Positions 10,415 to 46,025 of a stretch of DNA of 64,000 nt are shown here, one piece after another. The notes beneath the pieces are model-generated. The model saw only the letters and a list, made by a program, of their open reading frames with translations. It had not been told where the DNA came from and did no database searches. Position numbers and translations under genes: made by a program. The stretch comes from Paraspadella gotoi (lineage: Eukaryota; Animalia; Chaetognatha). The first letter of the stretch is position 1, and the number at the start of each line of letters is the position of its first letter. The stretch covers positions 3,747,494 through 3,811,493 of the forward strand of contig CM119265.1 of assembly GCA_051294375.1 (NCBI GenBank), in the 5' to 3' direction.

Positions 10415-13400
10415 TCCCTCATTTGTCGTTTTTTCTTACCTCTTTGTCTTTCCTTCATTCCTATAAATCCTTAACTAAAGGACGAGATGATATAATATGA
10501 CATTCTTTATTGTGAAAATATAGCATAATAATAGAGGACGAGTCTGATATTGTCTGTTGTTAGGTTTCTGTCTATTGTCCGTTCTCAACTTTACCCATTC
10601 GAAATCATATGGTTCCAACTCCGCGCGTCGAGAACCTTCAACCCAGCGAACAACTTAAGCATCCCTAAACGGTCAACGTTATAAGGTGAGTTCAAAGTTC
10701 GGTTCGGATCATTCAGGTCAGGTCGCGGCGCTCTTTGGTCAGTTTTGTGGCGTTCAATTACCGACGTTTCTGGAGCGAAGCAACAATTGGCTTCCGGCTG
10801 GTAGATGTTCAGAATGATGAGGGGAGAGAGAGAGAGAGACTGAGTGAGGTATGAAGAGAACGAGAGAGAGAGAGAGAGAATCTTCACACGATATTCGTTA
10901 GTTATCAACTGAAAAAATCCAAATAAGCGATAATATTTTTAAGACAAGCGAAGCGTTTTTTTTGTTTATATGGTATGTATGTCAAATTATATTAGCGCAG
11001 AATTATTTTTTCTTTGTTGAGACCCAAAACTATCGGAGCACATAAGTTAAAATCTGTCGAAATAGGCTAATATCCTTAGATAAAGTTAATAAATAAGACC
11101 CACAGTTTCAATCTGTGATCATGACGGCGTAATATCAGACAAGACGAAAAATATTGGCTCGCCTAAATTCGGGAATTACATCCAGGAGAATATGGAACAC
11201 CTTACGGAGGCTCAGCAGTGAACGAACCGAAACACAGACACGATCACGATCAACGACCGACCGACCGACCGAGCACCGAGCCGCGACCGACCCGAAACGA
11301 ACGAGCAACGACACGAACGACACGAACAGTTACGATACGACACGAAAACCGAAACGACACGAACGAACGGGAGACGAGACCGACCAACGCGTACCGACAG
11401 AACGAACGAACGAACCGAACGGTATTACGAAACGATACACGAACGAAACGAGAACGACGAACGAACGGAACGAAACGAGATTACGAACGAACCGAACGAA
11501 CGATCATACGAACCGAGCACGAACGAACGAACCGAACGATTACGATCCATAACGAACGACGTGACGGGACGGAGTGAATGACAATAGGAATTAAATAATG
11601 GGAAGAAGGAGCGGAATCGAATGAAGCAACGCATGGCCGGACGGACGGACGAAACGACAATAGAAACGAACCAAACAATAATCATGAGATAACGAACGAG
11701 AGAACCACGAACAATGCCCGACTAATAAAATATACGAACAACACTATTTGCAAAAAAACGACAACCTAGACTATCTGATCAACAAGGAAAGGACCTATAT
11801 AGACTTACCCAATTAAACTTGACCCACCCAATTCCTTCTGCTAAAAGGTGCGCTACATGGTCCGCCAATGTCGCGACTCGCGAAAGGAATTTCAACATCG
11901 AATGCCAGAAAACAGAACCGGACGGTTAGTATGTCCTTTCTGTCCTGCACCGAAGGCTGTAGGAGGAATCAACACTGCGGACTGGGACTGGCGCGAGCAT
12001 AACAGGGAAGAGATGGAGGAGAGTGAAGAGAAGCGAGAACCGACGTGATGTGGAGGGGGAGGAGGGAGCGGAAAGAAGGGTAAGAGAAAGAGAGACGAGA
12101 GAGCAGAGAGAGAGAGAGCGTAGACCTGAGAGAGAAGAAAGAGAGATGAGAAGTAGAAGAGACGATGAGAGAGATCTCGAGATCGAGATGAGAGAGAGGA
12201 GAGGAGAGAGAGAGCGCAACATGATCATCTCCCCTTCTCCCTGCCATTCAGCGGCACGACATCTCGCCAAAAACTACTTGCACCACCTACGTGGACCCGC
12301 GATTCCGTGTGTGACCCCGAGGACGAGACAGATGTCCCAACCCCATCGTCCACGCGAAGCGGCAAAGGATTTGTCCGCAGAATAACCCAACTCGGCATCG
12401 ATAGGTCAGAGTCCTTCGGTGGGTGCAGGGGGTACGCGGCGGTGAGGGTTCTGTAGCGGCCGGTGTATATAATCGCTCTCATAGAATTCTTTCAGAAAAT
12501 AATCCAATATTTTCTTTCTGCTGGCAAAACGGATGGAAAACTGTTACCTTTTGGTCTTATATTTCTTTTTAGTAATGTATTCTCTCTTTTTTCTTGATGT
12601 GGTACAATTAGCAAATTCTATTCCCTTTGCTTTTCCAATACCTAAAAATCGATTCGTACGAACTTTTATCTACCACGTTCACCAAAGTTTTCTTTGATCC
12701 GTTATATTTAATATTGGAGGATTCTCATTGGATCAACATCAATGCAGTAGGTCAATCTCCGCTCACTCCATCTCGTATTGATTCCTCCCCCCGCCCCCCC
12801 CTAATTAGAGACTGGCATCGAATCCTCCAGTCCTCCGACATGGATTACACACCCGACCATCATCCTCCGAGTGTCGGCCTTCGATTTCTACTCAAAGGTC
12901 ACCTCAATTTCAGTCATTTCTTACTCCACAACCATCGGCGGCTCAGGACCACATCTCCCACCCACACCCCAGGCCTCTTCGATCAACCCCTGCCACAACC
13001 TAAACCGCGGATGGCCTCGTCGACCCTACATGCTCTTCTGAGAAAGCAGCCGACCTCCTTCGGGTTGTTCCAACCGCTCGCCTGGTAACGGCTTGTTGCT
13101 ACTACTGTCAGAACATCAAAGTGCACGTGGCTGAAAAGGACAGGTCATCCAGGCCTTACGATGCCCCCGGGTGAGTTAGGGAAATGAATGAATGAATAAT
13201 GATAATGAATCGAATGAATGAATGAATTATAATGAGAAAATGTAAAATTTCGAAATAATAAATAATTATACATTAACGTAGTACATTTGAGTCAAAAGAT
13301 TAGAGAAATTAAAATGTCCACAATAACGGAAAATCTAAACAAATGGCTTCGGTTTGCACAAAGATATCAGGGTGTTCAAGGTTGTATACTAGTTTATACT

Positions 13401-16089
13401 GTTAACACTGGGTTATAAGAAAACCCGTAAATTTGATAGAGTAACGTTGATGGGATAAAGCAAGATAATTATGCTAAGAGTGATGTGGCGATTGAAGAAA
13501 TACGTTGAATGCGCCATACCAAATTAATCCGGTTATTTTCAACTCCCCCCCCATGACCCGTCTTTCAACTCCACTCACCTCCTGCAATCGCTATGCCGCC
13601 GGATCGACCAATCTCTCTCGCCCACAGCTGTCAGTTGCCCGCTCGTCCGTCTGCGGCCGGCATGGGCGCGCGAAACAATCGTGCAGAGGCAAGTGGCCGG
13701 GCACGTTCGGCGATATTCCGCCAAGTTTTCTCGGACAGGTTAAATGTTATATCATCATATAAATTTAATTTATATATCATATTCTTCTGTTATTACTAGC
13801 TTAAAATTGAATAAATTAATCTGGTGATGTCAAATCTCAAACACCGGTCTAATTGCTTAGTTTTGTTATTTGATTTCAATAATAACTTATTCGATTCGCT
13901 ACTTAATAATTGATTTGATCTGCCCTAGAACTAACTCTCCTTTCAATAAGCTGGTCCACTTTAAAAAACATTCCTTTATAATTAGATTTTAAAAATGTGC
14001 ATGTAATCGTGGTGATAAAATTATTAATACTGATTCTAACCACTTAATAAATATTTCAATCCACCCTATCTGACTCTCAGATCATCGAGGATCGAAAGGC
14101 CTGCATGCGACCCTGCGCCAGAACTTCATCAAATGCCCCTTTCATCATTCTCATCGATCCCGCTGGAGACAGAAGAACTGGGAGGGCGGAGGGGGAAGTG
14201 TGAAGGAGAAGGGGGAAGTGGTGTGAGAGGAGGAGGTGGAAGTGTGAGGAGAAGGATGGGCAAGTGTAGAAAATGGGAAGGTGTGATAGGAAAAGGGAAG
14301 GTTGAGAAAAATAGGGGGAGGTTCGAGAGAAGGGAAAGTTGTAAGATTTAAAGGGGATGTGGGAAAAGGAGAGGGAGGTTGTGGGGAGGAGGAAGGGGAG
14401 AGTGTGTGAGTAGCGGCAAAGTGTAGGAGAAGGACGGAAGTGTAGGGAAAGGGTGAGAGATGACTGGGGGTATGTTGTGAGAGGAGGAGAGAGTGTGAGG
14501 AAAGATTTGGGGAGGATGAACGAAGGAGGGGGGAGAGTGTGAGAGAATTGGTTGCAGTAAAATGGGGCAAGAGAGTAGAAGAGGGGAAATAAACAAATGG
14601 ATATTCCATCGTCTGGAATAGAATGCTTATTGTAATAATAATTATTATAAACTAGTGACGCAAATTGAACATGATAATCGAATAAAATTTATACTATTGA
14701 GAAGTACCAGTCAGTAACTCCTTGTTGACGTCGCTGAGATCAGAATCTTTCTCTTATTTAATTCTGTTTGCTGCACTGTCGACTTTGCCGCAAACCTCTG
14801 TTGCCATTTTTTCCAGATTTTCTCTTGAAAAATTTTGAAATGGAAAATTCTTTTTACTTAAGACGCAAATAATCCCCACCCACTAATAGACGACCCGACC
14901 GTCTCTTCCGCTTCTCATCTCTGGCCTTCACGATAGTCTCAAACCGTGGTCTTGGATACATTTGGGCGTGATGAAGCTTAGATCCCTTCGCTCATCTCCC
15001 TCCCTCCCTCTCTTTCTCTTACTCTCTCTATCTCTCTCTCTACTCTCTCCTCTCTCTCTCCTAAACCAAAAGTCCCAAAATTATCATTAAAATTTGGTTC
15101 ATGAATGATCTTTGCCTCCGTTTCCTAATTTGCGAAAAACCGCCCGATATACAGTGTTGAGACCGTTATATACGAGACAAACTAACCGCCTGACTTCACA
15201 CGCCGTACGGGCAGTGACGCCGCATGGTCCAAGTCTGAACGATTTGAGAACAATAATTAAATGAGCTGACCAAAAAATTTTTTTTATATACAATCAAAAA
15301 AAATAAATTAATTGACGGTCGTTGGAATGTTTTCAAAAACATTGTCGTATTGTCTTTTTTGCCGCGGGCATTGTATTGCACACTGATAAAAGCCATAGCT
15401 TTTCAACCATATTTTTCACTGGTCGATCGTCTGAACATGACAGTGGCTTATGTCTGATCTTCAATTCACCTGATTTTTAAGGTTTTTCATCCTATCAAAT
15501 TAAACCTATTTAATTTTTTTCAGGTAAGTAAAATAAAATTTTTGGAAGATTATGACGAATAGGCTTAAATTTTAAATTACTTTATGTATTTTTTCTTTTG
15601 ACGTAATGATGCATTCAGAAAATATTACATGATGTATTTCAATTATCTGACAATATCGTTAATAAATTTATTTGATAAAAGTAAGTTTAATAAAAATAAA
15701 CCAATAACAGTAACTACCCAAATCTGTACATTCTGCCAGAAGCATTATTATACTACAAATAAAAGTACTTCCAAAAATATTTTTGACTGATTATGTATTG
15801 AATGAGATTTAACATAATTATTCAAATAACTTTCTCTAAACCGCGCGAAGAAAACTGAGCAGGTTGCTTTTGTTTCATCAAAAAAGCATAATATCAAAGA
15901 TTTCAAAACAATTAATTAATTATCGTCTAAAAGCTAAGAGAGAGTATTAATACTAATATCTATCAGATTTATAAATCATTAAGAGCTTTAGGAGTAATAT
16001 TTTTTTAAAATTTTGTCTCGAAATAGGGGTCCCAATCCCCTGTATGCTCTCTCTCTCTTCTCTCTCTCTCTCTCTTCTCGTCTCTCTCT

Positions 16090-25500: not shown

Positions 25501-27997
25501 GTCTTTCTTTTTGGCGTTGAATTGAAGAAAATTTATTTTTCAAACGTTTTTGCGTGATGAGGAGAAAAAAAACTTTTTGTCCAAAATTATAGGTAGAGTT
25601 AAAAGTTGTTTGTTTATTTTTTTATTTTTTTTTATTTTTTTTATTTTAGCGCGATGAAAGATTAGAAGAAGAATTAGCGCATGAAAAAAATTTAGGTTTA
25701 GAAAGGATGGAAGAAAAAAAAATGTGGGGTGGGTTGGCCGAGGGTTTTGCCGGTAGCCAGTTAGTCGTAGAGCAGGGAAGCTTAATCCTGGGAGTTAACC
25801 TTGGGGGAGAGGGCCTTGCATTGGGCGTCACTGGAAGATGGGTATCTAGCTAAAGTAGGTACTATCTAGTCTCTCATCGGGAAAAAGGTATTAGGCAAGT
25901 ATGTAATGGTAATAGGGAAAACAGAATATAACAAAGGGTATCAAGGGTACATAAAAGCGGGGCAGAAGGGAGAGGGAAAGTTGCAGACCCCGCAGACCGA
26001 GAGGAGAAACCGAGAAGAGAGTCGAAGTATGAGAGAGTGAGTCCGATCTCCAGGACTCTATTCCGTTGACTCCGGAGAAGAGGAGGGGACGACGACGCGG
26101 TTAGGAGGAGGCGTTGAGAGGGGGAAGCAGAAGGCCCGGGGGAGAGAGAGGTTCTGGCAGTAAGGTGAAGCCTCTATCTGGTTAGAAATCAGTATTAATA
26201 TTTTTATCACCCACTGAATTACATCACATTTTAAAATCTAATTTAAAGGAATGTTTTTGTAAGTGGCCACTTATTAAGAGATGTTAGTACGAGGCAGATC
26301 AAATCAATTATTTAAGGCGAATCGAATAAGTTATTATGAGAATCAATAACAAACTAAGCAATTAGTCCGGTGTTTGAGATTTGACATCACAGATTAATTT
26401 ATTCAATTTTTAAAGCTAGTAATAACAGGAAGGAATATTAATAATAAATTAAATTTTATATGATGATATAAACATTTTACCTGTCCGAGAAAACTTGGCC
26501 GGAATATCGCCGAACGTGCCCGGCCACTTGCCCTGCACGATGTTTTCCGCCCCACCGGGCCCGAGACGGACGCGCGGGCAAGTGACGCTTGGAAGGTTTG
26601 ATCGGGCATAGGGATTGCAGGGAGGTGGGAAAGCTTTGGATCGGTGGGGGAGTTGAAAATAACCGAGTTAATTGATGGCGCATTCAACGTATTTCTATCA
26701 TTCTTACATCGCCACATCACCCTTACATAATTCTTGCTTTATCCCATCAACGTTACTTCAAATTTTACGGGTTTTCTTATAATCCAGTGTATAACTTAGT
26801 ATAAACATAGTATAAACACTTTGGACCCTGAATCTTTGTGCAAACCGAAGCCATTTGTTTAGATTTTCGTAGTTGTGGAATTTATAATTTTCTTCTATCA
26901 TCTTTGTTGTGGAACTGTAACAACAGTGTAACTGCAGCGTCCTCTAATGTACTACATTCGAAATTTTATTTTACGTACAAAAATTTTCCATTCATTCATT
27001 CATTCATTCATTCATTCATTCATTCATTCATTCATTTCCCCTAACTCACCCGGGGGCATCGTAGGCCTGGATGACCTGTCCTTTTCAGCCACGTGCACTT
27101 TGATGTTCTGACAGTCGTAGCAACAAGCGTTACCGGCGAGCGGTTGGAACAACTCGAAGGAGGTCGGCTGCTTCTCAGAGAGCATGTAGGGTCGACGAGG
27201 CCATCCGCGGTTTAGGTTGTGGCAGGGGTTGACGAAGGAGGCCTGGGGTTGTGGTGGGAGATGTGGGTCTGGAAGCGCCGATGGTTGTGGAGTAAATGAC
27301 TCGAAAATGAGGTGACCTTTGAGTAAATGGAAGGGCCGACACTCGGGAGGATATGGTCGGGATTGTAATCCATGTCGGGGACTGGAGGATTCGGATGCCA
27401 GTCTCTATAGGGGGGGCGGGGGGAGGAATCAATAGAGATGGATGAAGCGGATTGACTACTGCATTGATGTTGCACACAATAGATCCTCAAATGAATTAAA
27501 TAAAACGAATCAAACCTTTTTTTGTAAAAGTGGTTGAGATAAAAAAGTCGTACAATCGATTTTTAGGTATTGGAAAAGCAAAGGGAATAGAATTTGCTAA
27601 TTGTACAATATAAAGAGAAAGAGAGAAAACATTACTAAAAAAGAATATCAAGAATATCAAAACCGTCGTTTGCACAGAAGAAGAAAAATAATTTCATCGA
27701 GGTTATTAAAATTTCTGAAGAATTCTATGAGCGATTATATACACCGGCGATCAACACCCCCTAGCACCCCGGCGCTCAACACCCCCTAGCACCCCGGCGC
27801 TCAACACCCCCTTGCACCACCGAGGACTCTGACCTATCGATCCCCGAGTTGGGATTCGGCGGACAAATCCTTCCCTTCGCGTGGACGATGGGTTGGCATC
27901 GTCTCGTCTCGGGGTCACAACCGAATCGCTCCACGTAGGTGGTCAAGTAGTTTTGGCGAATGTCGTCCGCTGAATGGAGGGAGAAGGGGGGAATCAT

Positions 27998-28066
<69 letters not shown>

Positions 28067-28931
28067 CACCTTCTTTCCCTCCCTCCCTCCCTCCCTCCAC
28101 TCACGTCGGTTCTCTCTCTTCACTCTCTCCATCTCTTCCCTGTTATGCTCCGCCAGTCCCCAGTCGCAGTTGATTCTCCTACAGCCTTCGGTGCAACAGA
28201 AAGGACATCTACCGTCGGTTCTGTTTTCGCATTCGATGTTGAATCCTTTTTCCGAGTCGCGACATTTGCGGACCATGTAGCGCACCTTTTAGAGAAGGAT
28301 TGGGTGAGTCAGTTAATTGGGTAAGTCTATATAGGTCCTTTCCTTGTGATCAAAGTTGTCAGTTTTGCAAATAGTTCGTATATTTTATTAGTCCATTGTT
28401 CGTTTCTCTCGTTCGTTCTCTTTTTTTGGTTCGTTCTTTCGTTCGTCCGTCCGTCCGGCCATGCGTTGCTTCATTCGTTTCCTCCTTCTTCATTATTTAA
28501 TTCTATTGTCATTCACTCCGTCCGTCCACTCATTCATTCATTCATTCATTCGTTCGTTCGTTCGTTCGTTCGTTCGTTCGTTCGTTCGTTCGTTCGTTCG
28601 TTCGTTCGTTCGTTCGTTCGTTCACCTGAGCCTCCGTAGGTTTCCATATTCTCGGATGATTCCCGATTTGCGCCAAATATTTTTCGTCTTTCTGATATTC
28701 GCCGATCATGATCACAGATTGAACTGTGGGTCTTTATTTATTAACTTTACTATATATTAGCCTATCGACAATTAACTTATGTCTCCGATAGTTTGGGTCT
28801 CAACAAAAAAAAATAATGCTGCTAAATAATTTGACATACATACAATAAACGAAAAAAACCTTCGCTGTCTTAAAAATATTATCGGCTATTATGACTTTTT
28901 ACAGTTGATAACTAACGAATTCGTCGTGAAG

Positions 28932-30259: not shown

Positions 30260-31263
30260 GTACAAAATTTTCCATTCATTCATTCATTCATTCATTCATT
30301 CATTCATTCATTTCCCCTAACTCACCCGGGGGCATCGTAGCCTGGATGACCTGTCCTTTTTCAGCCACGTGCACTTTGATGTTCTGACAGTCGTAGCAAC
30401 AAGCGTTACCGCGAGCGGTTGGAACAACTCGAAGGAGGTCGGCTGCTTCGCAGAGAGCATGTAGGGTCGACGAGGCCCATCGCGTTTAGGTTGTGGCAGG
30501 GGTTGACGAAGGAGGCCTGGGGTTGTGTGGAGATGTGGTCTGGAAGCGCCGATGGTTGTGGAGTAAATGACTCGAAAATGAGGTGACCTTGAGTAAATGG
30601 AAGGGCCGACACTCGGGAGGATATGGTCGGGATTGTAATCCATGTCGGACTGGAGGATTCGGATGCCAGTCTCTATAGGGGGGGGGCGGGGGGAGGAATC
30701 AATAGAGATGGATGAAGAGGATTGACTACTGCATTGATGTTGCACACAATAGATCCTCAAATGAATTAAATAAAACGATCAAACCTTTTTTGTAAAAGTG
30801 GTTGAGATAAAAAAGTCGTACAATCGATTTTTAGGTATTGGAAAAGCCAAAGGGAATAGAATTTGCTAATTGTAACAATATAAGAGAAAGAGAGAAACTT
30901 TACTAAAAAAGAATATCAAGAATATCAAAACCGTCGTTTGCACAGAAAAGAAAAATAATTTCATCGAGGTATTAAAATTTCTGAAGAATTTCTATGAGCG
31001 ATTATATACACCGGCGATCAACACCCCCTAGCACCCCGGCGCTCAACACCCCCTAGCACCCCGGCGCTCAACACCCCCTTGCCCACCGAGGACTCTGACC
31101 TATCGATCCCGAGTTGGGATTCGGCGGACAAATCTTCCCTTCGCGTGACGATGGGTTGGCATCGTCTCGTCTCGGGTCACAACCGAATCGCTCCACGTAG
31201 GTGGTCAAGTAGTATTGGCGAATGTCGTCCGCTGAATGGAGGGAGAAGGGGGGAATCATTGCG

Positions 31264-31319
<56 letters not shown>

Positions 31320-32429
31320 CTCCTCTCTCTCTTTCTCTTACTTCTTTCCTCCCTCCCTCCTCCCTCCACTCACGTCGGTTCTCTCTCTTCACTCTCTCCA
31401 TCTCTTCCTGTTATGCTCCGCCAGTCCCAGTCGCAGTTGATTCTCCTACAGCCTTCGGTGCAACAGAAAGGACATCTACCGTCGGTTCTGTTTTCGCATT
31501 CGATGTTGAATCCTTTTTCGAGTCGCGACATTTGCGACCATGTAAGCGCACCTTTAGAGATAGGATTGGGTGAGTCAGTTAATTGTGTAAGTCTATATAG
31601 GTCCTTTCCTTGGATCAAGTTGTCAGTTTTGCAATACGTTCGTATATATTTATAGTCCATGTTCGTTTCTCTCGTTCGTTCTCTTTGTTTGGTTCGTTCT
31701 TTCGTTCGTCCGTCCGTCCGGCCATGCGTTGGCTTCATTCGTTTCTCTTCTTCATTATTTAATTCTATTGTCATTCACTCCGTCCGTCCGTCCGTCCGTT
31801 CCGTCCGTCCGTCCGCCGTCCGTCCGTCCGTCCTCCGTCCGTCCGTCCGTCCGTCCGTCCGTCCGTCCGTCGCGCCGTCGTCCGTCCGTCCGTCCGTCGT
31901 CCGTCCGTCCGTCCGTCCGTCCGTCCGTCCGTCCGTCCGTCCGTCCGTCCGTCCGTCCGTCCGTCCGTCCGTCCGTCCGTCCGTCCTGTCCCTCCGTCCG
32001 TCCGTCCGTCCGTCCGTCCGTCCGTCCGTCCGTCCGTCCGTCCGTCCGTCCGCCGTCCGTCCGTCCGTCCTCCGTCCGTCCGTACGTCCGTCCGTCCGTC
32101 CGTCCGTCCGTCCGTCCGTTCGTTCACCTGAGCCTCCGTAGGTTTCCATATTCTCGATGATTCCCGATTTGCGCCAAATATTTTCGTCTTTCTGATATTC
32201 GCCGCTCATGATCACAGATTGAACTGTGGTCTTATTTATTAACTTTACTATATATTAGCCTATCGACAATTAATTATGTCTCCGATAGTTTGGGTCTCAA
32301 CAAAAAAATAATAATGCTGCTAAATTAATTTGACATACATACAATAACGAAAAAAACCTTCGCTGGTCTTAAAAATATTATCGGCTATTATGACTTTTTA
32401 CAGTTGATACTAACGAATTCGTCGTGAAG

Positions 32430-38147: not shown

Positions 38148-38934
38148 TGAAAAAATGATGCGAGTTAAAAAAAATGATGCGAGGAGAAAAAAACTGATGC
38201 AAGTTGGAAAAAAATTATGCAAGTTGAAAAAATAATAATAATTGTGAAGTCGTTTCTACTTCACGCCCGCAAATTCGCGAGTTCAAAACGTCGCCCGTTC
38301 CGTGTGGTTCGATGTGGGATCTTCGTAGTTAAAAATCTGAATATTTATCTGAATGTCGAGACAGATTTTGAAGGAAAAGACGAGATATTATTGCATAGTT
38401 ATTTTCACATACAAAGAGTCCCCGTAAAACTGTTATTTGGGACGGCACAACGTGTTTCTTAGTGAGCAAATCTAATAACTAAAGAAATGTCTCTATTTTC
38501 TCTCTCTCAACGACGACGGCCAAACAAAAGACCAGTAAAAATGCTCAACAGTCAGATAAAAGACCGGTCAAATACAACTCAGAGCAAAAACGTTTGATAG
38601 AGAGGGAAAATAGAATTGTGAGGTATAACATTTAACAATAATTGAAAAAAATTGTTTGTACTTTTTTTGTAATTATTTCTACTATAGTATTTATTTATTT
38701 ATTATTTATCTATTTATTTAGCTCTTTACCGCTTAATTATCGTGGGCAGATCCGACATTGTTTGTTCAAACTTGTTAAACCATTAAATAATGGCTCTGAA
38801 TACAGTTGTAAATCACATTGAATCAAAATATCAATAGTTAAAGGATATAAGTAATATGAAGTTAATGCTGGGGTGTTTTCTTTTACTGAAATACGATTTC
38901 ATGTGAGACCGTCGGAACTCATTTCTTTATCAAT

Positions 38935-41623
38935 TTAAACTGAACTTTCTTTTTCGGAAAACAACCAGGAAATAGAGCAGAGTGATAAGAGACTGCCCGC
39001 GTCAGAGCTTTCTTCCAACGAAAGAATTTCATTGTTCGATGCTTCCCCCTTATGTATGTCATCTTCCTCCTTCATTGTCCCCACTTCCAATCTCGTCCCG
39101 CTGCTCGAAACAAAGTTTTTAGGGTGACGAAGAACTTCACGCGCCTCCAAAACCCAACCGCTTTTTTCAATTCGTTCATTGAGGTGGTTAATTGTGGATT
39201 TCAATCGTTTCAATTCTTCCCGAGCATCGTAATCTTCGGGGGCATGCATCAACTTCTTTTGAATCCTTTTCAGCTTTCGCTCTTCCCGTAGTTTAAGTTG
39301 CTTCATTCTTTTTAATTCTACGCTGAAAGCCCTGAACTCATCCTCTGTTTTTGCCAGTACCCCAAAAATTTCGTTGAGACTGGATTCAAAGACTTCAACT
39401 ATCGCGTCCTCTGTGACAAAAGTCGTAGAAGCTCCTTCTTCGTGCACATCGAGGTACAGAGTGGTCAAGTTTGAGATCTCCTGCTTTTTCATTTCCATCT
39501 GCTCTTCGTAAGACTTAACACAGTTCTCGGGAAAGTTTTGAGCAAAGCATAAGTGTGCCATGTTTTTTCTCGCGAACCAGTACAGGTGCAGCAAGAACAA
39601 TGGGGTTTTTTGTAAAATTCCATTCAACAATTCCTTGGTTGTAGGTAAATGACCAAAATGTTCTATTAGTTGTTTCTCGTTTTTATTCCTGTGTAACAGC
39701 AGGTTTCGACAGTAGCGAAAATAGGAATCTAAAGAACAGGAGTACTTGGTGTTTTTGTAAATGGATTTAATGGCGTAGAATTTCCATTTTTTATCCAGCA
39801 GCATGTAGTAGGAGGCATTAAACTCATTAATTAAGGCTTCGGAAATCTTGGATAATTGGTCATTGAATGTATTTATGGCCGAGACAAGAGCATCAGTCTC
39901 TAAAAAGAATGGGTGTCTTTCCGCTTCTCGCATTGTTATCCTGTCCTTGGGGTTAAACTGCGTCATTGTCCGGAGGAGGTTTCTTGCCAACTCTGGAACC
40001 TCTAACTTCATGCATCGATTTTTCTTTTTCTTTTGGACATTGTTGAGACAATCGCTAAGCCCTGAAATATCCAGTAACTCACAAGCAACCAAGGCTGAGG
40101 AATATACATCTGCCATGACATAATCAACAGCATCTTTTTGTGATCCCGGCGTTCTTAATTTGATCAACTCCGGAGCCATGTACGCTTCCGTTGCCGCCCA
40201 GCTTGAAAAGTTAGAAAATTCATCTTGAACCATTTCTTTGGCAGAATCAAAGTCAGACAATTTTACAGCATAGGTTCCTTCCCTTGCCTGCAGGATACAA
40301 AAAAGAATATCATGTAAAAATTTAAATCTAGATTTAATATTCATAGATATTCGAAAATATATATTGAAATTTTGCAGGTAGGGTATTAATGATTATTTTT
40401 GTTTCAATTTTACCGTTGTTTTTAAAACAATAAAAAACCTTGTAAATAAAGGTACGTTGTTTATTAAAAAATTAAAAAGTGATGGAAAATATAAATATGC
40501 TTATAAACATGTCTTAAAATACATTTTTATATCAATAATGCTTTTACTAATCTTGTAATAAAATTTCAAGCAAAAACTATTTTTAATGATATCAATTTAT
40601 AATGACGAAAAACCCATCAAATTTTTTAAAGTAGCATTCTGCAACTAGTGCTCGGTACTTTCCTGCTTTTTTAAAAGCACATTGCTTGGTTTGATGTCTC
40701 GGTGAGCAACAATATTATGACATTCATCAACATTGGAATGGATGTAAGATACACCCTTAAAGAACTTCCTTGTCAACTCCTTGGTCGTAATGTTGTCCAG
40801 AACGTCATTCTTTACGTTTTTTGCTCAGAGTCTCAGGTCTCGTGATGTCGCGTAATGTCCCATCCGCCTTCTCAATGACCAAGATGAAGTCATTTCCTTT
40901 TGAAAAACTGGCATAAATTTTAATGATGGCTTCGTGTCTTCAAGGGATTTATGAATCTGAGCACATTTTAGGAGACGAGCAACTGCAGATTTGTCCGCGC
41001 ATCTAGTCACCTATAAAAAATTATTTATTGTAATATCTTTAGATAAAATACATTTTCAAAATTATTTTCATAAAATTCCTCGTAAATAGGGAGACAAAAA
41101 GAGTTAAGCTTTGAGCGAGGCTCAATATGTTAGCATTATTTATGTCATTATTAACATTTAGTGTTTAAAAATGAGATCTTTAAAATGGCTCATCATTCAT
41201 AAATCTTTGAAGCACATGATTGTTTAGTTATTGCTGTCACAAATGTTACAAAAATAATTCTGTAGAGAATTTTAGTCTGATATTGTACAATTGATTTTAT
41301 TAATTATCTATCATGCTTCCTTAATTTTTACTGATTAAACCTTCCATCAGACAAATAAACTAATAACAGTTATTTTTTTTGGATACATAAGAGAGAAAGA
41401 ATCCAGTTAATATCATATTTCCTGATATAAATATACTCTCCTAGTTTACACAATCATACATCACCTTTGTAACGACGTTTGTTCGACATCCACAGTTGTC
41501 CAAGGTCGCTGGATGCACAGAAACGTTGCCAAAACCCACACGGTACTTGTCGATTCTGGCACGAAGTGATTTGTCTATTTTAAGGCCGCTGAGCTCCTGT
41601 TTCCTCTTGCAGCAGCTGAACAT
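38935..41623 (-). CDS. Kinase-KEN (IRE1/RNase L-like) gene A. Three exons: 41623-41465, 41010-40663, 40287-38935. About 620 aa if exon 2 is corrected. Exon 2 is disrupted as assembled (possible pseudogene or sequencing error).
   Basis: ATG at 41623 (MFSCCKRKQ). Kinase motifs: GFGNVSV, VVTK, HRDIKPSNVLL, VKLSDFD, YMAPE, DVYSSAL, HPFF. These are followed by a KEN-like segment W..KYSCSLDSYFRYCRNLLLH..FGHLP..PLFLLHLY and a charged coiled-coil. Splice sites AAG|GTGATG, ttttttatag|GTG and tcctgcag|GCA are canonical. Two compensating frameshifts (~40940, ~40820) and a CAG|GAAAGT donor occur in exon 2. Confidence 0.85.
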
Positions 41624-42129
41624 TGCGCTTGAAGGGACGGGATATGGTAACAATAATTGACACAATCGAGGAAGGACAACATAGAATAAAAAAAAGTATG
41701 CAAAAACAATTTTTGACTTCAAAATTTAATTTAGAAAGGCTCGTGCTGGTTTTCCCGTTAATTCCTAAAACTGGTCTTTACGATGGAGATTTACTAAATA
41801 AACCTAGTAAACCGCGGAAATATAGATGTGGAGTTTTTAAGAGGATTTAAAACAAGAAAAAAAAATTGAAAAGCTTTCAAAAAAGTAATATTTTTTTTAG
41901 GCATTTGAATAAGTTAATTTTTTTTTCTCGAAAAATAGTCTCTTTTAAGCTGCTTCTCTGCTTTGCTGGAACTGCTCACAAGGACGGAACAGGTTGAAAA
42001 CTAGAAGTTCTCTCGAATAGATAATGGTAAAGTGACTGTTAGAGAATATGAAAATGAAAATAATTTTAAGATTTATCTAAAGAAGCATTTAAAAAATATT
42101 TCATTACTATATAAAATAATAAATTTAGT

Positions 42130-42370
42130 AATTTTTTTAATAGATTCTGAGGAGCTTTAAACGTTAGATAATAGTAATTATTACAACTTTTTAAAATTGT
42201 TTTGTTTTATTGATAACAATTTTTAAAAAAACTATAAAATTCAGCCAATGATGATGAAGATGATTTTTTAAGGTTTTTTATATTTTTAACCAATTTTTTG
42301 TAAAAGTTTTAAAAAATTATAGTATAAATTATAAGAATCCGTTCTAAAAAAAAATTAAAAAATATGTCAT
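42130..42370 (+). repeat. Dispersed AT-rich repeat; second copy at ~61390-61640
   Basis: Shared blocks GATTCTGA..GAGC.T.AAA.GTTA.A.AA, AAAAT...GATGATGA.GATGA.TTTT.A.GTTTTTTATATTTTT.AC and GTAAAA..TTTAAAAAA. Confidence 0.6.
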
Positions 42371-42742
42371 TTGTTATATATTAATATTTAAAAGCTTCAG
42401 CGTAACAACGCAATGAACTAATTCAAAATGTTGCATTGAAAAACGATTTAGTAGTAGAAGGTAAAAAAGAATTTTTTTGAGATGTTATAAAAAGTGTGCA
42501 ATTTTGGCCCTCCTTACTGCTCAAGTCTACTGAAAATTTAATGACCAAAAAAAGGCCGCCGTAATTGGGTTTTTTTTAACCGGTTAATGACTCAAAATTT
42601 GGCACTGGTTATCTATAAGAAAAAAATTAAAATAAAACAAAAAGAGACACAATTTTTTTTTATTTCTGTCCTTTTGAATAAACTTAAAAATCATGGGTTA
42701 TTTCATACAAAACAAAATTATTTTATTTGAAGCAACAAACTT

Positions 42743-45592
42743 TTATCCCGATTTGCTGGAGGTTGGATTCTGCCAAGAATAAAAAGAAGTCAAACTAAAA
42801 TAGGTCCCACTTTTTTCCTTGGGAGACTTTTCAGCCAACACTTCATTCTTTTTCTCAGCAACATCTTCCCGACCATTCACATTTATTGCATTAGGTTCAA
42901 TTTGTAATTGTTCTTTTGGAATATCATTGGATTCTATTGACTCCTCAACTGAATCTTCTTCTCTCTTGTCCACAATCAATGTTTCTTCCATCTCCCGTGT
43001 TCCCTCTTCTTTCTCTTCCGTGCCAACAAAGTGCCAACTTTGATTCTCTAATTGATTATCCTCACTTTCCCCAACCCCCGCCATAACGCTCTCTCTATTC
43101 ACTCCTTCATCAGCCAACGCACTCAACATTTTCTTATTTTGCTCTTGGATCTCTTTTTTGAGATCAGAATTCTCTCTCTCGATGGCTTCTCTTTCATCTT
43201 CTCTCAACAGACTCATGTTCTTTAGGTTTTCCTCCAATCGCCGTTTGGCCTTTTCCCTCCTTCTGGCAGCGAGGATCAAATCCCCCTCTGACTCTGGTTT
43301 CCAATCATCGTCCGGGTTTTCATCTAACGGTACAGACTCCGCTTGGTGGACAGGTTCTGAACTCAATTCGCTTGCATCGCTTTCATCTACTTCTTCCACA
43401 ATTTCCTCCGAGATGACTGAATTAAAAGTGACTTGTTTGACGGCGGTTTCGAGCTCTGTATCACTAGAAATTTTAAATTCTCCTTCATCAGCATTTTCCA
43501 AAAGATGCACCCTCTCCCAGAGATTTTCCATATCCTCCACCGCGCCCCGCTTGATTGCCATCTGCTCCTCATAAGCCTTGGCGCAGTTGAGCGGAAAATC
43601 TTGACAAAATTCTAGTTTGGGCAAGTAGCGCTTTGCAAACCAAAATATGTGAATGACCAGATTTTTGGTATTTCTCAAAACGTCTCGCAACAGCTTTTCC
43701 TTAGTTGGCAAGGAGCCATAATGACGATTTAATTCTTCGTCATTGGCAGGCACTATCAGATTTCGACAGTAGCGGATGTAGTCAACTAAAAACGGAGAGT
43801 ACTTTACTTTTTCATATATTTCCATAATGGCATATCTCTTCCATTTTTCTTGAAAAACCATGTAAAATGAGTTGTTTAATGTATTGACAATGTCCTCTCC
43901 GGTAGGATGGGATAAATCTAAATTGGAAATAGCCTCGTCAAACGTATCAAAGACTCTTATCAATAACTCGGTCTTCCAGAAAAACGGATGAGCCGATGAC
44001 TCCTGCATCGAGATCCTGAACTTTGGATCTAACTGAGTCATTGTCCAGATAAGATTTCTTTCCAACTCTTCCATGTCCTCGACCATTAATGATGATCTTT
44101 CACCTTTGCGTTGGTTAAAAATGATCTCGTGAGGATCACTGTGCCGCCCACAAAGATGGCGCTCGTTATGTGCAATCGAGACAAGCGCCTCAAAGGCAAC
44201 TAGACCAGCGGAGTAGACATCAGCCGCCTGGTGATCGAGTATCGTGGTTTCTATTTTCCGCAAGGGGCCCTCTAACTCGGGCGCTGTATATAGCGCGACC
44301 CTGTTGGCATGGCTGAAGATGAATGGCTCATCAGACTCTGTCCCTGAAGCGTATTCAAAGTCTGTCAGTTTGACGGCGTAACTTCCATCACGAAGCCGTT
44401 TCTTTAGCAGAACATTTGCCGGTTTGATGTTGCAGTGAGCGACGTCGTTGTCGTTTTTATCTCGATATGAATGAATTGATTCGAGGCATCGGAAAAACTC
44501 GTGGACGAGGAATTTCGGGGGCGTCGATGAGAGGAGCTCCTTGCTCAAAGTTTTCTGCGGAGGCAATTTCGGGCGAAGGACATCTTCAAGAGATCCTTCG
44601 GCGCGATCAAGAAGAAGAACAAAGTCTCGCCCGTCTTTTTTGAATCCAAAAACCTGGCGGGAAGAATGAATGACAAAAAGGTGGTTATGGACCATTGTAG
44701 ACTTTGGAGAGACTTTTAGAGACTTTATGAAATTGGTACAATCTTTAAAAAAGTATCCATTCATTTAATAAATAAGCTATCATGCCCCAGACTTTAAACA
44801 GGCTTTGCTGGGTTAAGGTTTCCATCCCTGTTACAAGATTATAACATATGTAGCAGGATAAAGATCAAGATTTTTTCACAGTCAAGTTTATTCACAAACT
44901 AGCTTCCCTAACAATGAAGTGATATATATTATTATAAATATGTTTTAATTGCATCGCAGATGGAATCGGATCCGCGACACGAGGACTCTCTGATTGGATG
45001 AATCATCATCGAAACGGACCAATGAGAAGACAGGCTTCCTGCCATCGGGAAACGAGCCCGCGTCGATGATCCGATTGCATTGTATAAATACTGGACCATT
45101 TCGTATTGAATCCAAATTTCAATCCAAATCTCAAATTCTGACACCGTCTTTGCTTGTGACTTTTCTGAAGAATAAAATCCACTTTCGGTTTCATGTTGAA
45201 ATCTCTGTCTACTTACTTAAATGTGGTGGCAGCGGTGGGATTCGAACCCACGGTATAAAAGGATGCTTCCCTCATATTGATTACACAAGTGACATCTATC
45301 AAATTCATGTATTAAGAGCATCTCCCGGTGAACATCACACCTTGATCACTCCCTCCTGATCATGCAATGAACGATGAAGGTCGGCGGATCGAATCCTGCG
45401 TCTAATCGTGACGGCGTTGCAGAATCGCGTCACCTTGGCGACTGCGTCCAGCGCCTCTCCGTCGTCCTTCAGCGTCGCCGGGTGGAGAGAGACGTTGCCG
45501 GCGTCGAGGGCGCGGTGTCGTCGACGCGCGTTTCCTCGGATTCGTCGATGGCGACGGAGAAGAGGCCGCCCGACAGATGGCGCGGCGGGAAT
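42743..45592 (-). CDS. Kinase-KEN gene B, predicted pseudokinase and pseudo-RNase. Exons 45592-45341 and 44653-42743; first exon/start codon not located.
   Basis: The upstream exon reads AGNVSLHPATL..AVAKVTRFC..LHRSLHDQEGVIK, splices at AAG|GTGTGA and joins in phase 0 at ccgccag|GTT (VFGFKKDG). Motifs: HCNIKPANVLL, VKLTDFE, YTAPE, DVYSAGL, HPFFW, KYSPFLVDYIRYCRNLIVP, YGSLP, then an acidic linker and coiled coil. It aligns colinearly with gene A. Confidence 0.85.
44757..44830 (+). repeat. Short dispersed repeat; related copies at ~60580-60625 and ~61855-61910
   Basis: ATTCATTTAATAAATAAGCTATC..ACTTT..ACAGGCTTTG is shared with 61856; AATAAGCTATC..TGGGTTAAGG.TTCCATC is shared with 60588. Confidence 0.6.
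44950..45252 (+). mobile_element. LTR-like remnant ending in a tRNA-Leu primer-binding-site-like sequence, inside an intron of gene B (antisense)
   Basis: 45224-45252 TGGTGGCAGCGGTGGGATTCGAACCCACG is the exact complement of the 3' end of eukaryotic tRNA-Leu including CCA. It is preceded in order by ATTGG/CCAAT boxes (44993, 45019), TATAAATA (45083) and AATAAA (45171). LTR boundaries are not resolved. Confidence 0.55.
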
Positions 45593-46025
45593 CTGGAAGG
45601 GGTAGTTGGAGGAGGGGGGGGATCGGTGGGGGGGGGCGATTTGATAGCATCGCGATTTAGAATTAAAAGAACGATACTTAGAATATCAATGTATTAAGCA
45701 TTTAAGGATAAATTTAAACAATTCTTTTATTTGTTGCAAATGAAAAGAGAAAAAAAAAACACTTATGCTAAATTTGTTATAAAAATTTTTTTTTTTTTTG
45801 CTCTTTTTTTTTTTTGGTTCGTATTGAATGGACTCTTGATCCTTTGGCCCGGAATCTAACAGTAACTCTCTTTTATTACTTAGTACTTAGTATTTAGTAC
45901 TACTCTCTTTTCTAACCAAATCTTTGATTGAATAGAAAACACAAAAACAGGTTTGAAGTGGATTAACGGTCGTTAAACTTTAAATGTTTAATATAGAAAA
46001 TAGTTAAAAAATGAGAGAGAAACAG

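Follow-up and report, generated by a model that had tools for sequence, protein, structure and literature searches.

The two minus-strand genes described here, B and, downstream of it, A, belong to a real family: an expanded kinase-KEN subfamily, distinct and sensor-less, some of whose members are natural pseudoenzymes. Our reading of the pair, which we hold at about even confidence, is that gene A, a spliced member of this undescribed, IRE1-derived family, is likely a latent cytosolic endoribonuclease, and that gene B, its tandem sister, has kept the fold but lost catalytic residues and is likely a brake or decoy. Both genes are set amongst microsatellites and high-copy repeats in the window (i.e. 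the whole stretch of DNA analysed, 64 kb), and no further family copy was found within these 64 kb.

The preliminary description of this DNA had read both products as a kinase followed by a KEN ribonuclease domain of the IRE1 type, and this architecture holds for both, for gene B by profile only. Pfam applied to the long open frames of A and B returned Pkinase and nothing else; the Pfam KEN model (PF06479, Ribonuc_2-5A) gave no match to either gene at E up to 1, and matches 10 of the 29 members of the family alignment, all below its gathering threshold (E up to 0.1; best 1.4e-4). Profiles of the family built without A and B recognise both genes, gene A scoring 258 bits for the kinase and 113 for the KEN domain, and gene B 234 and 117, respectively. 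When the 29-member family profile is compared with the PDB, chains containing the IRE1 kinase and RNase rank first (E 1e-26), and the family Tyr, Arg-Asn and His are aligned with those of yeast Ire1. Similarly, the top three clusters in the Atlas bear Pkinase plus Ribonuc_2-5A. A structural model of P0006, a full-length relative, reaches a pLDDT of 83.5 and is matched to IRE1 by Foldseek; its residues 5–447 superpose on IRE1 563–963 (Z 32.1, rmsd 3.0), and the family protein therefore begins at the start of the IRE1 kinase. For gene A itself, the KEN domain and tail modelled without the kinase (pLDDT 92.7) yield top Foldseek rows that are almost all IRE1, at E about 0.06, and Ire1 ranks first when 48,161 chains are compared, with a Z of 12.5 and an rmsd of 3.0 over 127 residues. 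RNase L is not present among the listed sequence and structure matches of the family and of the gene A models.

Across the family, the GxGxxG loop is absent throughout. The beta3 Lys is found in 18/20 rows, the alphaC Glu in 16/26, the HRD Asp in 37/40 and DFD in 36/40, whilst in the KEN domain the Arg-Asn pair occurs in 36/38 rows and the His in 40/41 rows regarded as genuine, gene B being the sole exception. Gene A keeps the beta3 Lys, HRD, Asn, DFD and the full KEN set of Tyr, Arg, Asn and His; its alphaC Glu is replaced by Gln, and the kinase is therefore atypical. The motifs HRDIKPSN, DFD and RNLLLH (the last at 39708) are present as previously quoted, and the claim that its catalytic motifs are intact stands for the KEN domain, but only in part for the kinase, given the missing GxGxxG loop and the alphaC Gln. 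Judged by motif, a putatively RNase-competent gene A is supported. Gene B displays Asp at the alphaC position, HCN for HRD, DFE, and Pro at the KEN His together with a 2-residue deletion (43765–43748). Its quoted motifs, HCNIKPAN (44437) and RNLIVP (43765), were likewise confirmed, alongside DFE at 44362, and both the HRD Asp and the KEN His are lost from an exon of 637 codons that is indeed open. The dead residues are the same in every sequencing contig covering those codons, with the KEN Pro seen in all four runs compared (X7, X1, X2 and X5). These features support a gene B product that is predicted to be catalytically dead with its fold kept, and that is apparently retained. Of the columns highly conserved in the family, gene B keeps 42/55 and gene A 43/55, the losses of B including catalytic ones; ten full-length relatives keep 44–53 of 53–56 such columns, placing A and B farther from the family consensus. 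Other dead variants occur in the family, affecting the kinase catalytic loop in P0017 and P0037, and the KEN Arg-Asn in P0044 and P0155.

Gene A begins with a coding exon of 53 codons (41465..41623, minus strand, as are all features of both genes), which runs from the probable start Met and encodes the N-lobe, including the beta3 Lys and, in the place of the Gly-loop, the RIDK segment of the family. Intron 1 (41011..41464) is of the GT-AG type. Exon 2 (40663..41010) harbours the alphaC position (Glu to Gln), the hinge and the HRD motif (at about 40704–40696), and is followed by intron 2 (40288..40662). Exon 3 (38935..40287) encodes DFD, the kinase C-lobe, the KEN domain (39508..39900, with the Tyr at 39744 and Arg-Asn-x3-His at 39708–39691), a C-terminal antiparallel helical hairpin (39106..39411) ending in the W-x-L-x-x-R motif of the family, an acidic tail and the stop codon.

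The stretch is present in nine public runs from three studies, of which the four named above were compared. None of the runs is recorded as RNA, and the RNA status of X7 is a guess, judged from its joints: it leaves most of both gene A introns uncovered and joins both (41006/41461, linking the 3′ end of exon 1 to exon 2, and 40286/40662), and therefore behaves as RNA. Its cover on exon 1 ends at 41528, short of the 5′ end. In the window sequence, two frameshifts interrupt the HRD exon of gene A, and GA stands at its donor, a pseudogene-like look that the preliminary description did not mention. Three single-base insertions in exon 2 bring the frame back; all three are found in X7, X1 and X2, and two of the three are among the differences listed for X5. 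Thus, broken as given, the gene is open after read correction, with a product of 620 codons, and the two frameshifts are assembly errors. The possibility that gene A is a pseudogene was rejected, since the other runs lack the frameshifts and splicing occurs at the unusual donor. For intron 2, only one of six possible registers ends in AG, leaving an exon that ends in CAG and an intron that starts with GAAAGT, and no difference at this donor is found among those listed for the DNA-like runs. A non-canonical GA-AG intron is thus the most likely reading, the donor otherwise agreeing with the consensus; an exonic AG before the GA is the context reported for such introns, which are described as frequent in Eurytemora and Oikopleura (PMC7072748).

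Two further observations concern this part of the window. Between 40408 and 42014, comparison with short-read contigs reveals many 1-letter indels, mostly in homopolymers and amounting to 15–27 gap letters per contig, and frameshifts elsewhere in the assembly therefore deserve distrust. In addition, one X5 contig contains 41119–41231 and 40511–40553 in reverse, joined to 40656–40873 in forward orientation, which may be a rearranged allele, an extra partial copy or an assembly chimera.

Gene B has a different layout. Its coding exon 1 (45341..45650) encodes the N-lobe, with the beta3 Lys kept and Asp at the alphaC position; the candidate ATG at 45650 leads into a Pro-rich leader, and the exon, which probably runs beyond 45592, contains one apparent frameshift. 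Contigs of X7 and X2 each carry one extra letter in this exon, and the frameshift is probably an assembly error. The GT-AG intron (44654..45340) is full of high-copy repeats, and exon 2 (42743..44653; 637 codons including the stop) encodes the pseudokinase, the KEN domain, an acidic tail and the stop codon. X7 covers 42683–44553, passing the stop into the 3′ UTR, and a second stretch, 45339–45585, where its contig halts at 45339 with 45 loose letters; this is consistent with splicing of the intron, the joint itself not being among those listed. Over the 3′ half of the gene (42683–43591), a polymorphic deletion leaves the contigs of X7 and X1, but not the X2 and X5 pieces, 6 letters short of the window sequence.

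With regard to relatives, a word search with the gene B core returned one at E 1e-61, and a full HMMER search 127 matches, 20 of them at E up to 1e-30. The family comprises about 50 sequences; 55 proteins were used as family rows, many of which are fragments, and one (P0051) has a foreign tail. All derive solely from unannotated ENA assemblies, as seen for ten of ten clusters looked up and for 20/20 family matches of the profile search. A viral or prokaryotic origin was considered and rejected, as scans of viral and JGI metagenome contigs gave generic kinases only among the matches listed (best 80 bits). Further kinase-KEN-like proteins, in which the N-terminal module is swapped or lacking, were also encountered (P0040, P0049, P0059, P0063, P0069, P0087 and P0090); we take their N-terminal arrangements to be death-fold-like, LRR plus a membrane helix, TPR-like with two kinases, tandem kinases, and bare.

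In a tree of 33 of the 45 rows (LG+G4; the 12 omitted were long, gappy or redundant, and there was no RNase L sequence in it), a branch with 100/99 support separates the family from the canonical IRE1-like rows. Its interior is star-like, and the earlier view of it as a distinct, expanded clade is upheld. Genes A and B pair as sisters at 98/89, their branches measuring 0.72 and 0.74, and tandem duplication therefore explains their adjacency. The two are 39% identical over 300 residues of the C-lobe-to-KEN part, and share none of their intron positions (those of A follow beta3 and the catalytic loop; that of B lies in beta4), which suggests fast intron turnover or retroposition.

Between A and B, pS is 0.85, and hence saturated, against a pN of 0.38, indicating long-term constraint on the pair. 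Whether this constraint extends to the present bears on the strongest alternative to our reading, namely that A is functional and B (perhaps A too) is a relaxed duplicate heading for loss in the course of gene birth and death, with no regulatory role, which we regard as unlikely. Such a fate would accord with the allelic coding differences, of which, among those listed, 22/27 are non-synonymous and 5 synonymous (one is probably the window's own, and one at 45590, where the frame is unclear, was left out); as the neutral share is about 0.79, present-day polymorphism shows no purifying selection. It would also accord with the two catalytic-loop changes of gene B, each a single transition and consistent with CpG decay, with the loss of the family hairpin from this gene, and with the X5 contig carrying a rearranged copy of the gene A exon 2 region. 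Recent decay, however, fits poorly: under a crude model, three catalytic losses without a stop codon in gene B have a joint probability of about 0.001 at most given recent neutrality, such that 636 open codons alongside several targeted catalytic losses are not readily expected. Nor is the branch of gene B longer than that of A, and the gene is covered by the RNA-like run. Moreover, the complete list of differences between gene B and X7 places 2 in the kinase-KEN core and 8 in the tail (p 3e-4). Selection today could be either relaxed or diversifying.

The C-terminal regions of the two genes agree only in part with the preliminary description, in which both carried a coiled coil. For gene A this is borne out, its tail being predicted as a long antiparallel helical hairpin that scores 35.8 bits against the family tail profile (relatives, 47–114); gene B gave no match to the hairpin profile and has instead an acidic tail of about 270 aa. 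A structure search with the gene A hairpin retrieved generic helical-hairpin matches only (Z 8.7–10.1), so that an ESCRT-III- or SMC-like label was dropped as non-specific, and the Atlas yielded no usable match to it. Pairing of A with B through a coiled coil is weakened because gene B is without the family hairpin. That the two form a dedicated effector and regulator module, joined by their C-terminal coiled coils, is consequently a distinctly improbable reading, even with the genes adjacent, on the same strand and both covered by X7, with dead variants recurring elsewhere in the family, and with a short, charged, helical-looking stretch in the tail of gene B; beyond the missing hairpin, their status as sisters already accounts for the adjacency.

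To our knowledge, IRE1 and RNase L are the only kinase-KEN proteins understood mechanistically, and both rely on an N-terminal sensor. Like IRE1/ERN1 (yeast Ire1, human IRE1alpha; PDB 2rio, 3fbv, 4z7h, 6w3c), the family has a kinase directly followed by KEN (whole-module Z about 32), and gene A possesses the KEN Tyr, Arg, Asn and His along with HRD and the beta3 Lys. Unlike IRE1, it has no luminal domain or transmembrane helix, its Gly-loop is replaced and DFD stands for DFG; it also has an added C-terminal hairpin, forms a separate clade and is multi-copy with dead members. With RNase L, the family shares a cytosolic kinase-like plus KEN core in which the kinase domain is likely a scaffold, and, in gene A and 36/40 rows, Asp in place of the DFG Gly (Asp505 in RNase L as described in PMC4718504), gene B having DFE. 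It differs in being without ankyrin repeats, and hence without an evident 2-5A site, in keeping HRD in most members and in its C-terminal hairpin.

Kinase-KEN proteins beyond these two are already on record. Homologues of RNase L and IRE1 have been sorted into ten clades, mostly of kinase plus RNase, and RNase L is inferred to have acquired its ankyrins on a bare kinase-RNase ancestor (Chu et al. 2023, PMC10400998); a lumen-less plant IRE1 is known in IRE1C of Arabidopsis (PMC6883098). The clades other than IRE1 and RNase L, and IRE1C, resemble the present family in combining kinase and KEN whilst having neither the lumenal sensor of IRE1 nor the ankyrins of RNase L, and sensor-swapped forms also occur amongst the matches obtained here; therefore the family is not the categorically new third class that had been suggested. 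What sets it apart is the hairpin, the RIDK segment and the pseudoenzymes, which go unmentioned in the main-text or abstract descriptions of those proteins, although the published clades may include it. A literature search, with few subscription papers within reach, found no description of a hairpin-bearing kinase-KEN family. Solo KEN domains expanded in Oikopleura and monocots are a further parallel, as lineage-specific expansions of a KEN RNase that are predicted to be defensive, but there the kinase is absent, whereas the present family keeps kinase and KEN and has a new tail (PMC3710099). It is from the expansion pattern only that we infer a role in defence or stress. The family might instead have no part in defence and act as an RNase of the RIDD type in housekeeping or development, or as a scaffold that senses nucleotides, for which lumen-less IRE1C, at work in gametogenesis (PMC6883098), provides a precedent; this we hold to be less probable again, as the star-like radiation, the many divergent paralogues and the repeated inactivation resemble conflict systems, and expanded KEN families have been predicted to be defensive (PMC3710099).

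The absence of an N-terminal sensor, noted previously for gene A, extends to the family, which starts at the kinase. In 14 of the 15 relatives with an N-terminus, the Met lies 15–28 residues ahead of the RIDK segment, and in gene A at 22; these starts are machine-called on short contigs, such that single ones may be wrong, but their convergence is strong. No segment resembling a transmembrane helix is found in either gene, with maximal 19-residue hydropathies of 1.27 for A and 1.47 for B, versus 2.6–2.7 in two IRE1 matches. The start of gene A (41600–41623, minus strand) encodes a pair of Cys ahead of basic residues, whilst P0017 begins Met-Gly-Ser; both may be lipid anchors, and neither is conserved in the family. 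Least probable of all is that exons farther upstream supply a domain of the ankyrin, luminal or membrane kind, or that B and A share one transcript, making an ordinary or fused sensor-bearing protein: read cover stops short of the 5′ ends of both transcripts, and a pyrimidine-rich, acceptor-like stretch lies just before the gene A ATG, in a frame that stays open as far as 41725 and includes a run of moderate hydrophobicity (1.87), but relatives converge on a start just ahead of the kinase, 0/60 upstream minus-strand frames (filtered) match any Pfam domain, the X7 contig passes the gene B stop into a 3′ UTR, and no long fused family member was found among proteins of 1142–3260 aa, which is weak evidence.

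Returning to the reading of gene A as a latent endoribonuclease, its kinase-like domain, with Gln at alphaC, DFD and no Gly-loop, would hold Mg-nucleotide but serve mainly as a dimerisation scaffold, as suggested by the biochemistry of IRE1 and RNase L; in the latter, a cation is contacted by the Asp that replaces the DFG Gly, in a domain described as an ATP-binding scaffold (PMC4718504). By analogy with Ire1, the monomer would be inactive and RNA would be cut after dimerisation. Ire1 has catalytic residues Y1043/R1056/N1057/H1061, with a centre in each protomer and an RNA-binding surface that needs two (PMC3149027). With no N-terminal sensor present, the conserved hairpin would be the best candidate for the trigger, standing in for the sensor by joining protomers, alone or on a trigger protein, upon which back-to-back KEN domains would cleave single-stranded RNA. 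Gene B, in turn, may contact A by its kinase/KEN face, not by a hairpin, or may soak up antagonists. Given that it has lost both nucleotide-site residues and the hairpin, a brake or decoy appears its most likely role, a dominant-negative suppression of the kind proposed for IRE1beta towards IRE1alpha (PMC8528705) being one parallel; His-dead Ire1, however, is reported to activate wild-type Ire1 in trans (PMC3149027), and gene B could therefore stimulate A instead of braking it. More broadly, and tentatively, an animal lineage may have independently evolved an RNase L-like defence from IRE1, with a hairpin switch instead of ankyrins and 2-5A, RIDK at the nucleotide site instead of a Gly-loop, and dozens of paralogues, amongst which repeatedly inactivated copies such as B would tune active ones or act as decoys for pathogen antagonists.

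Members that are naturally kinase-dead, RNase-dead or doubly dead would permit a test of RNase switching in the absence of a sensor, and the family as a whole a test of whether non-vertebrates possess an immune arm akin to RNase L. The family would escape annotation pipelines, as the Pfam KEN model is silent and gene A looks like a pseudogene in this assembly.

Finally, the repeats surrounding the genes merit brief description. Very high-copy interspersed repeats at 38654–38776, 41981–42500 and 44748–45250 flank both genes and fill the gene B intron. ARAGORN and Rfam found no tRNA genes or Rfam matches in the 64-kb window, including near 45230–45250, where a motif resembling a tRNA B-box presumably hints at a SINE fragment. 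Elsewhere, a multi-kb repeat is present in several diverged copies, at 11700–13800, 26400–28300 and 30300–31700, which contain similar decayed open frames and possibly represent one transposon family.
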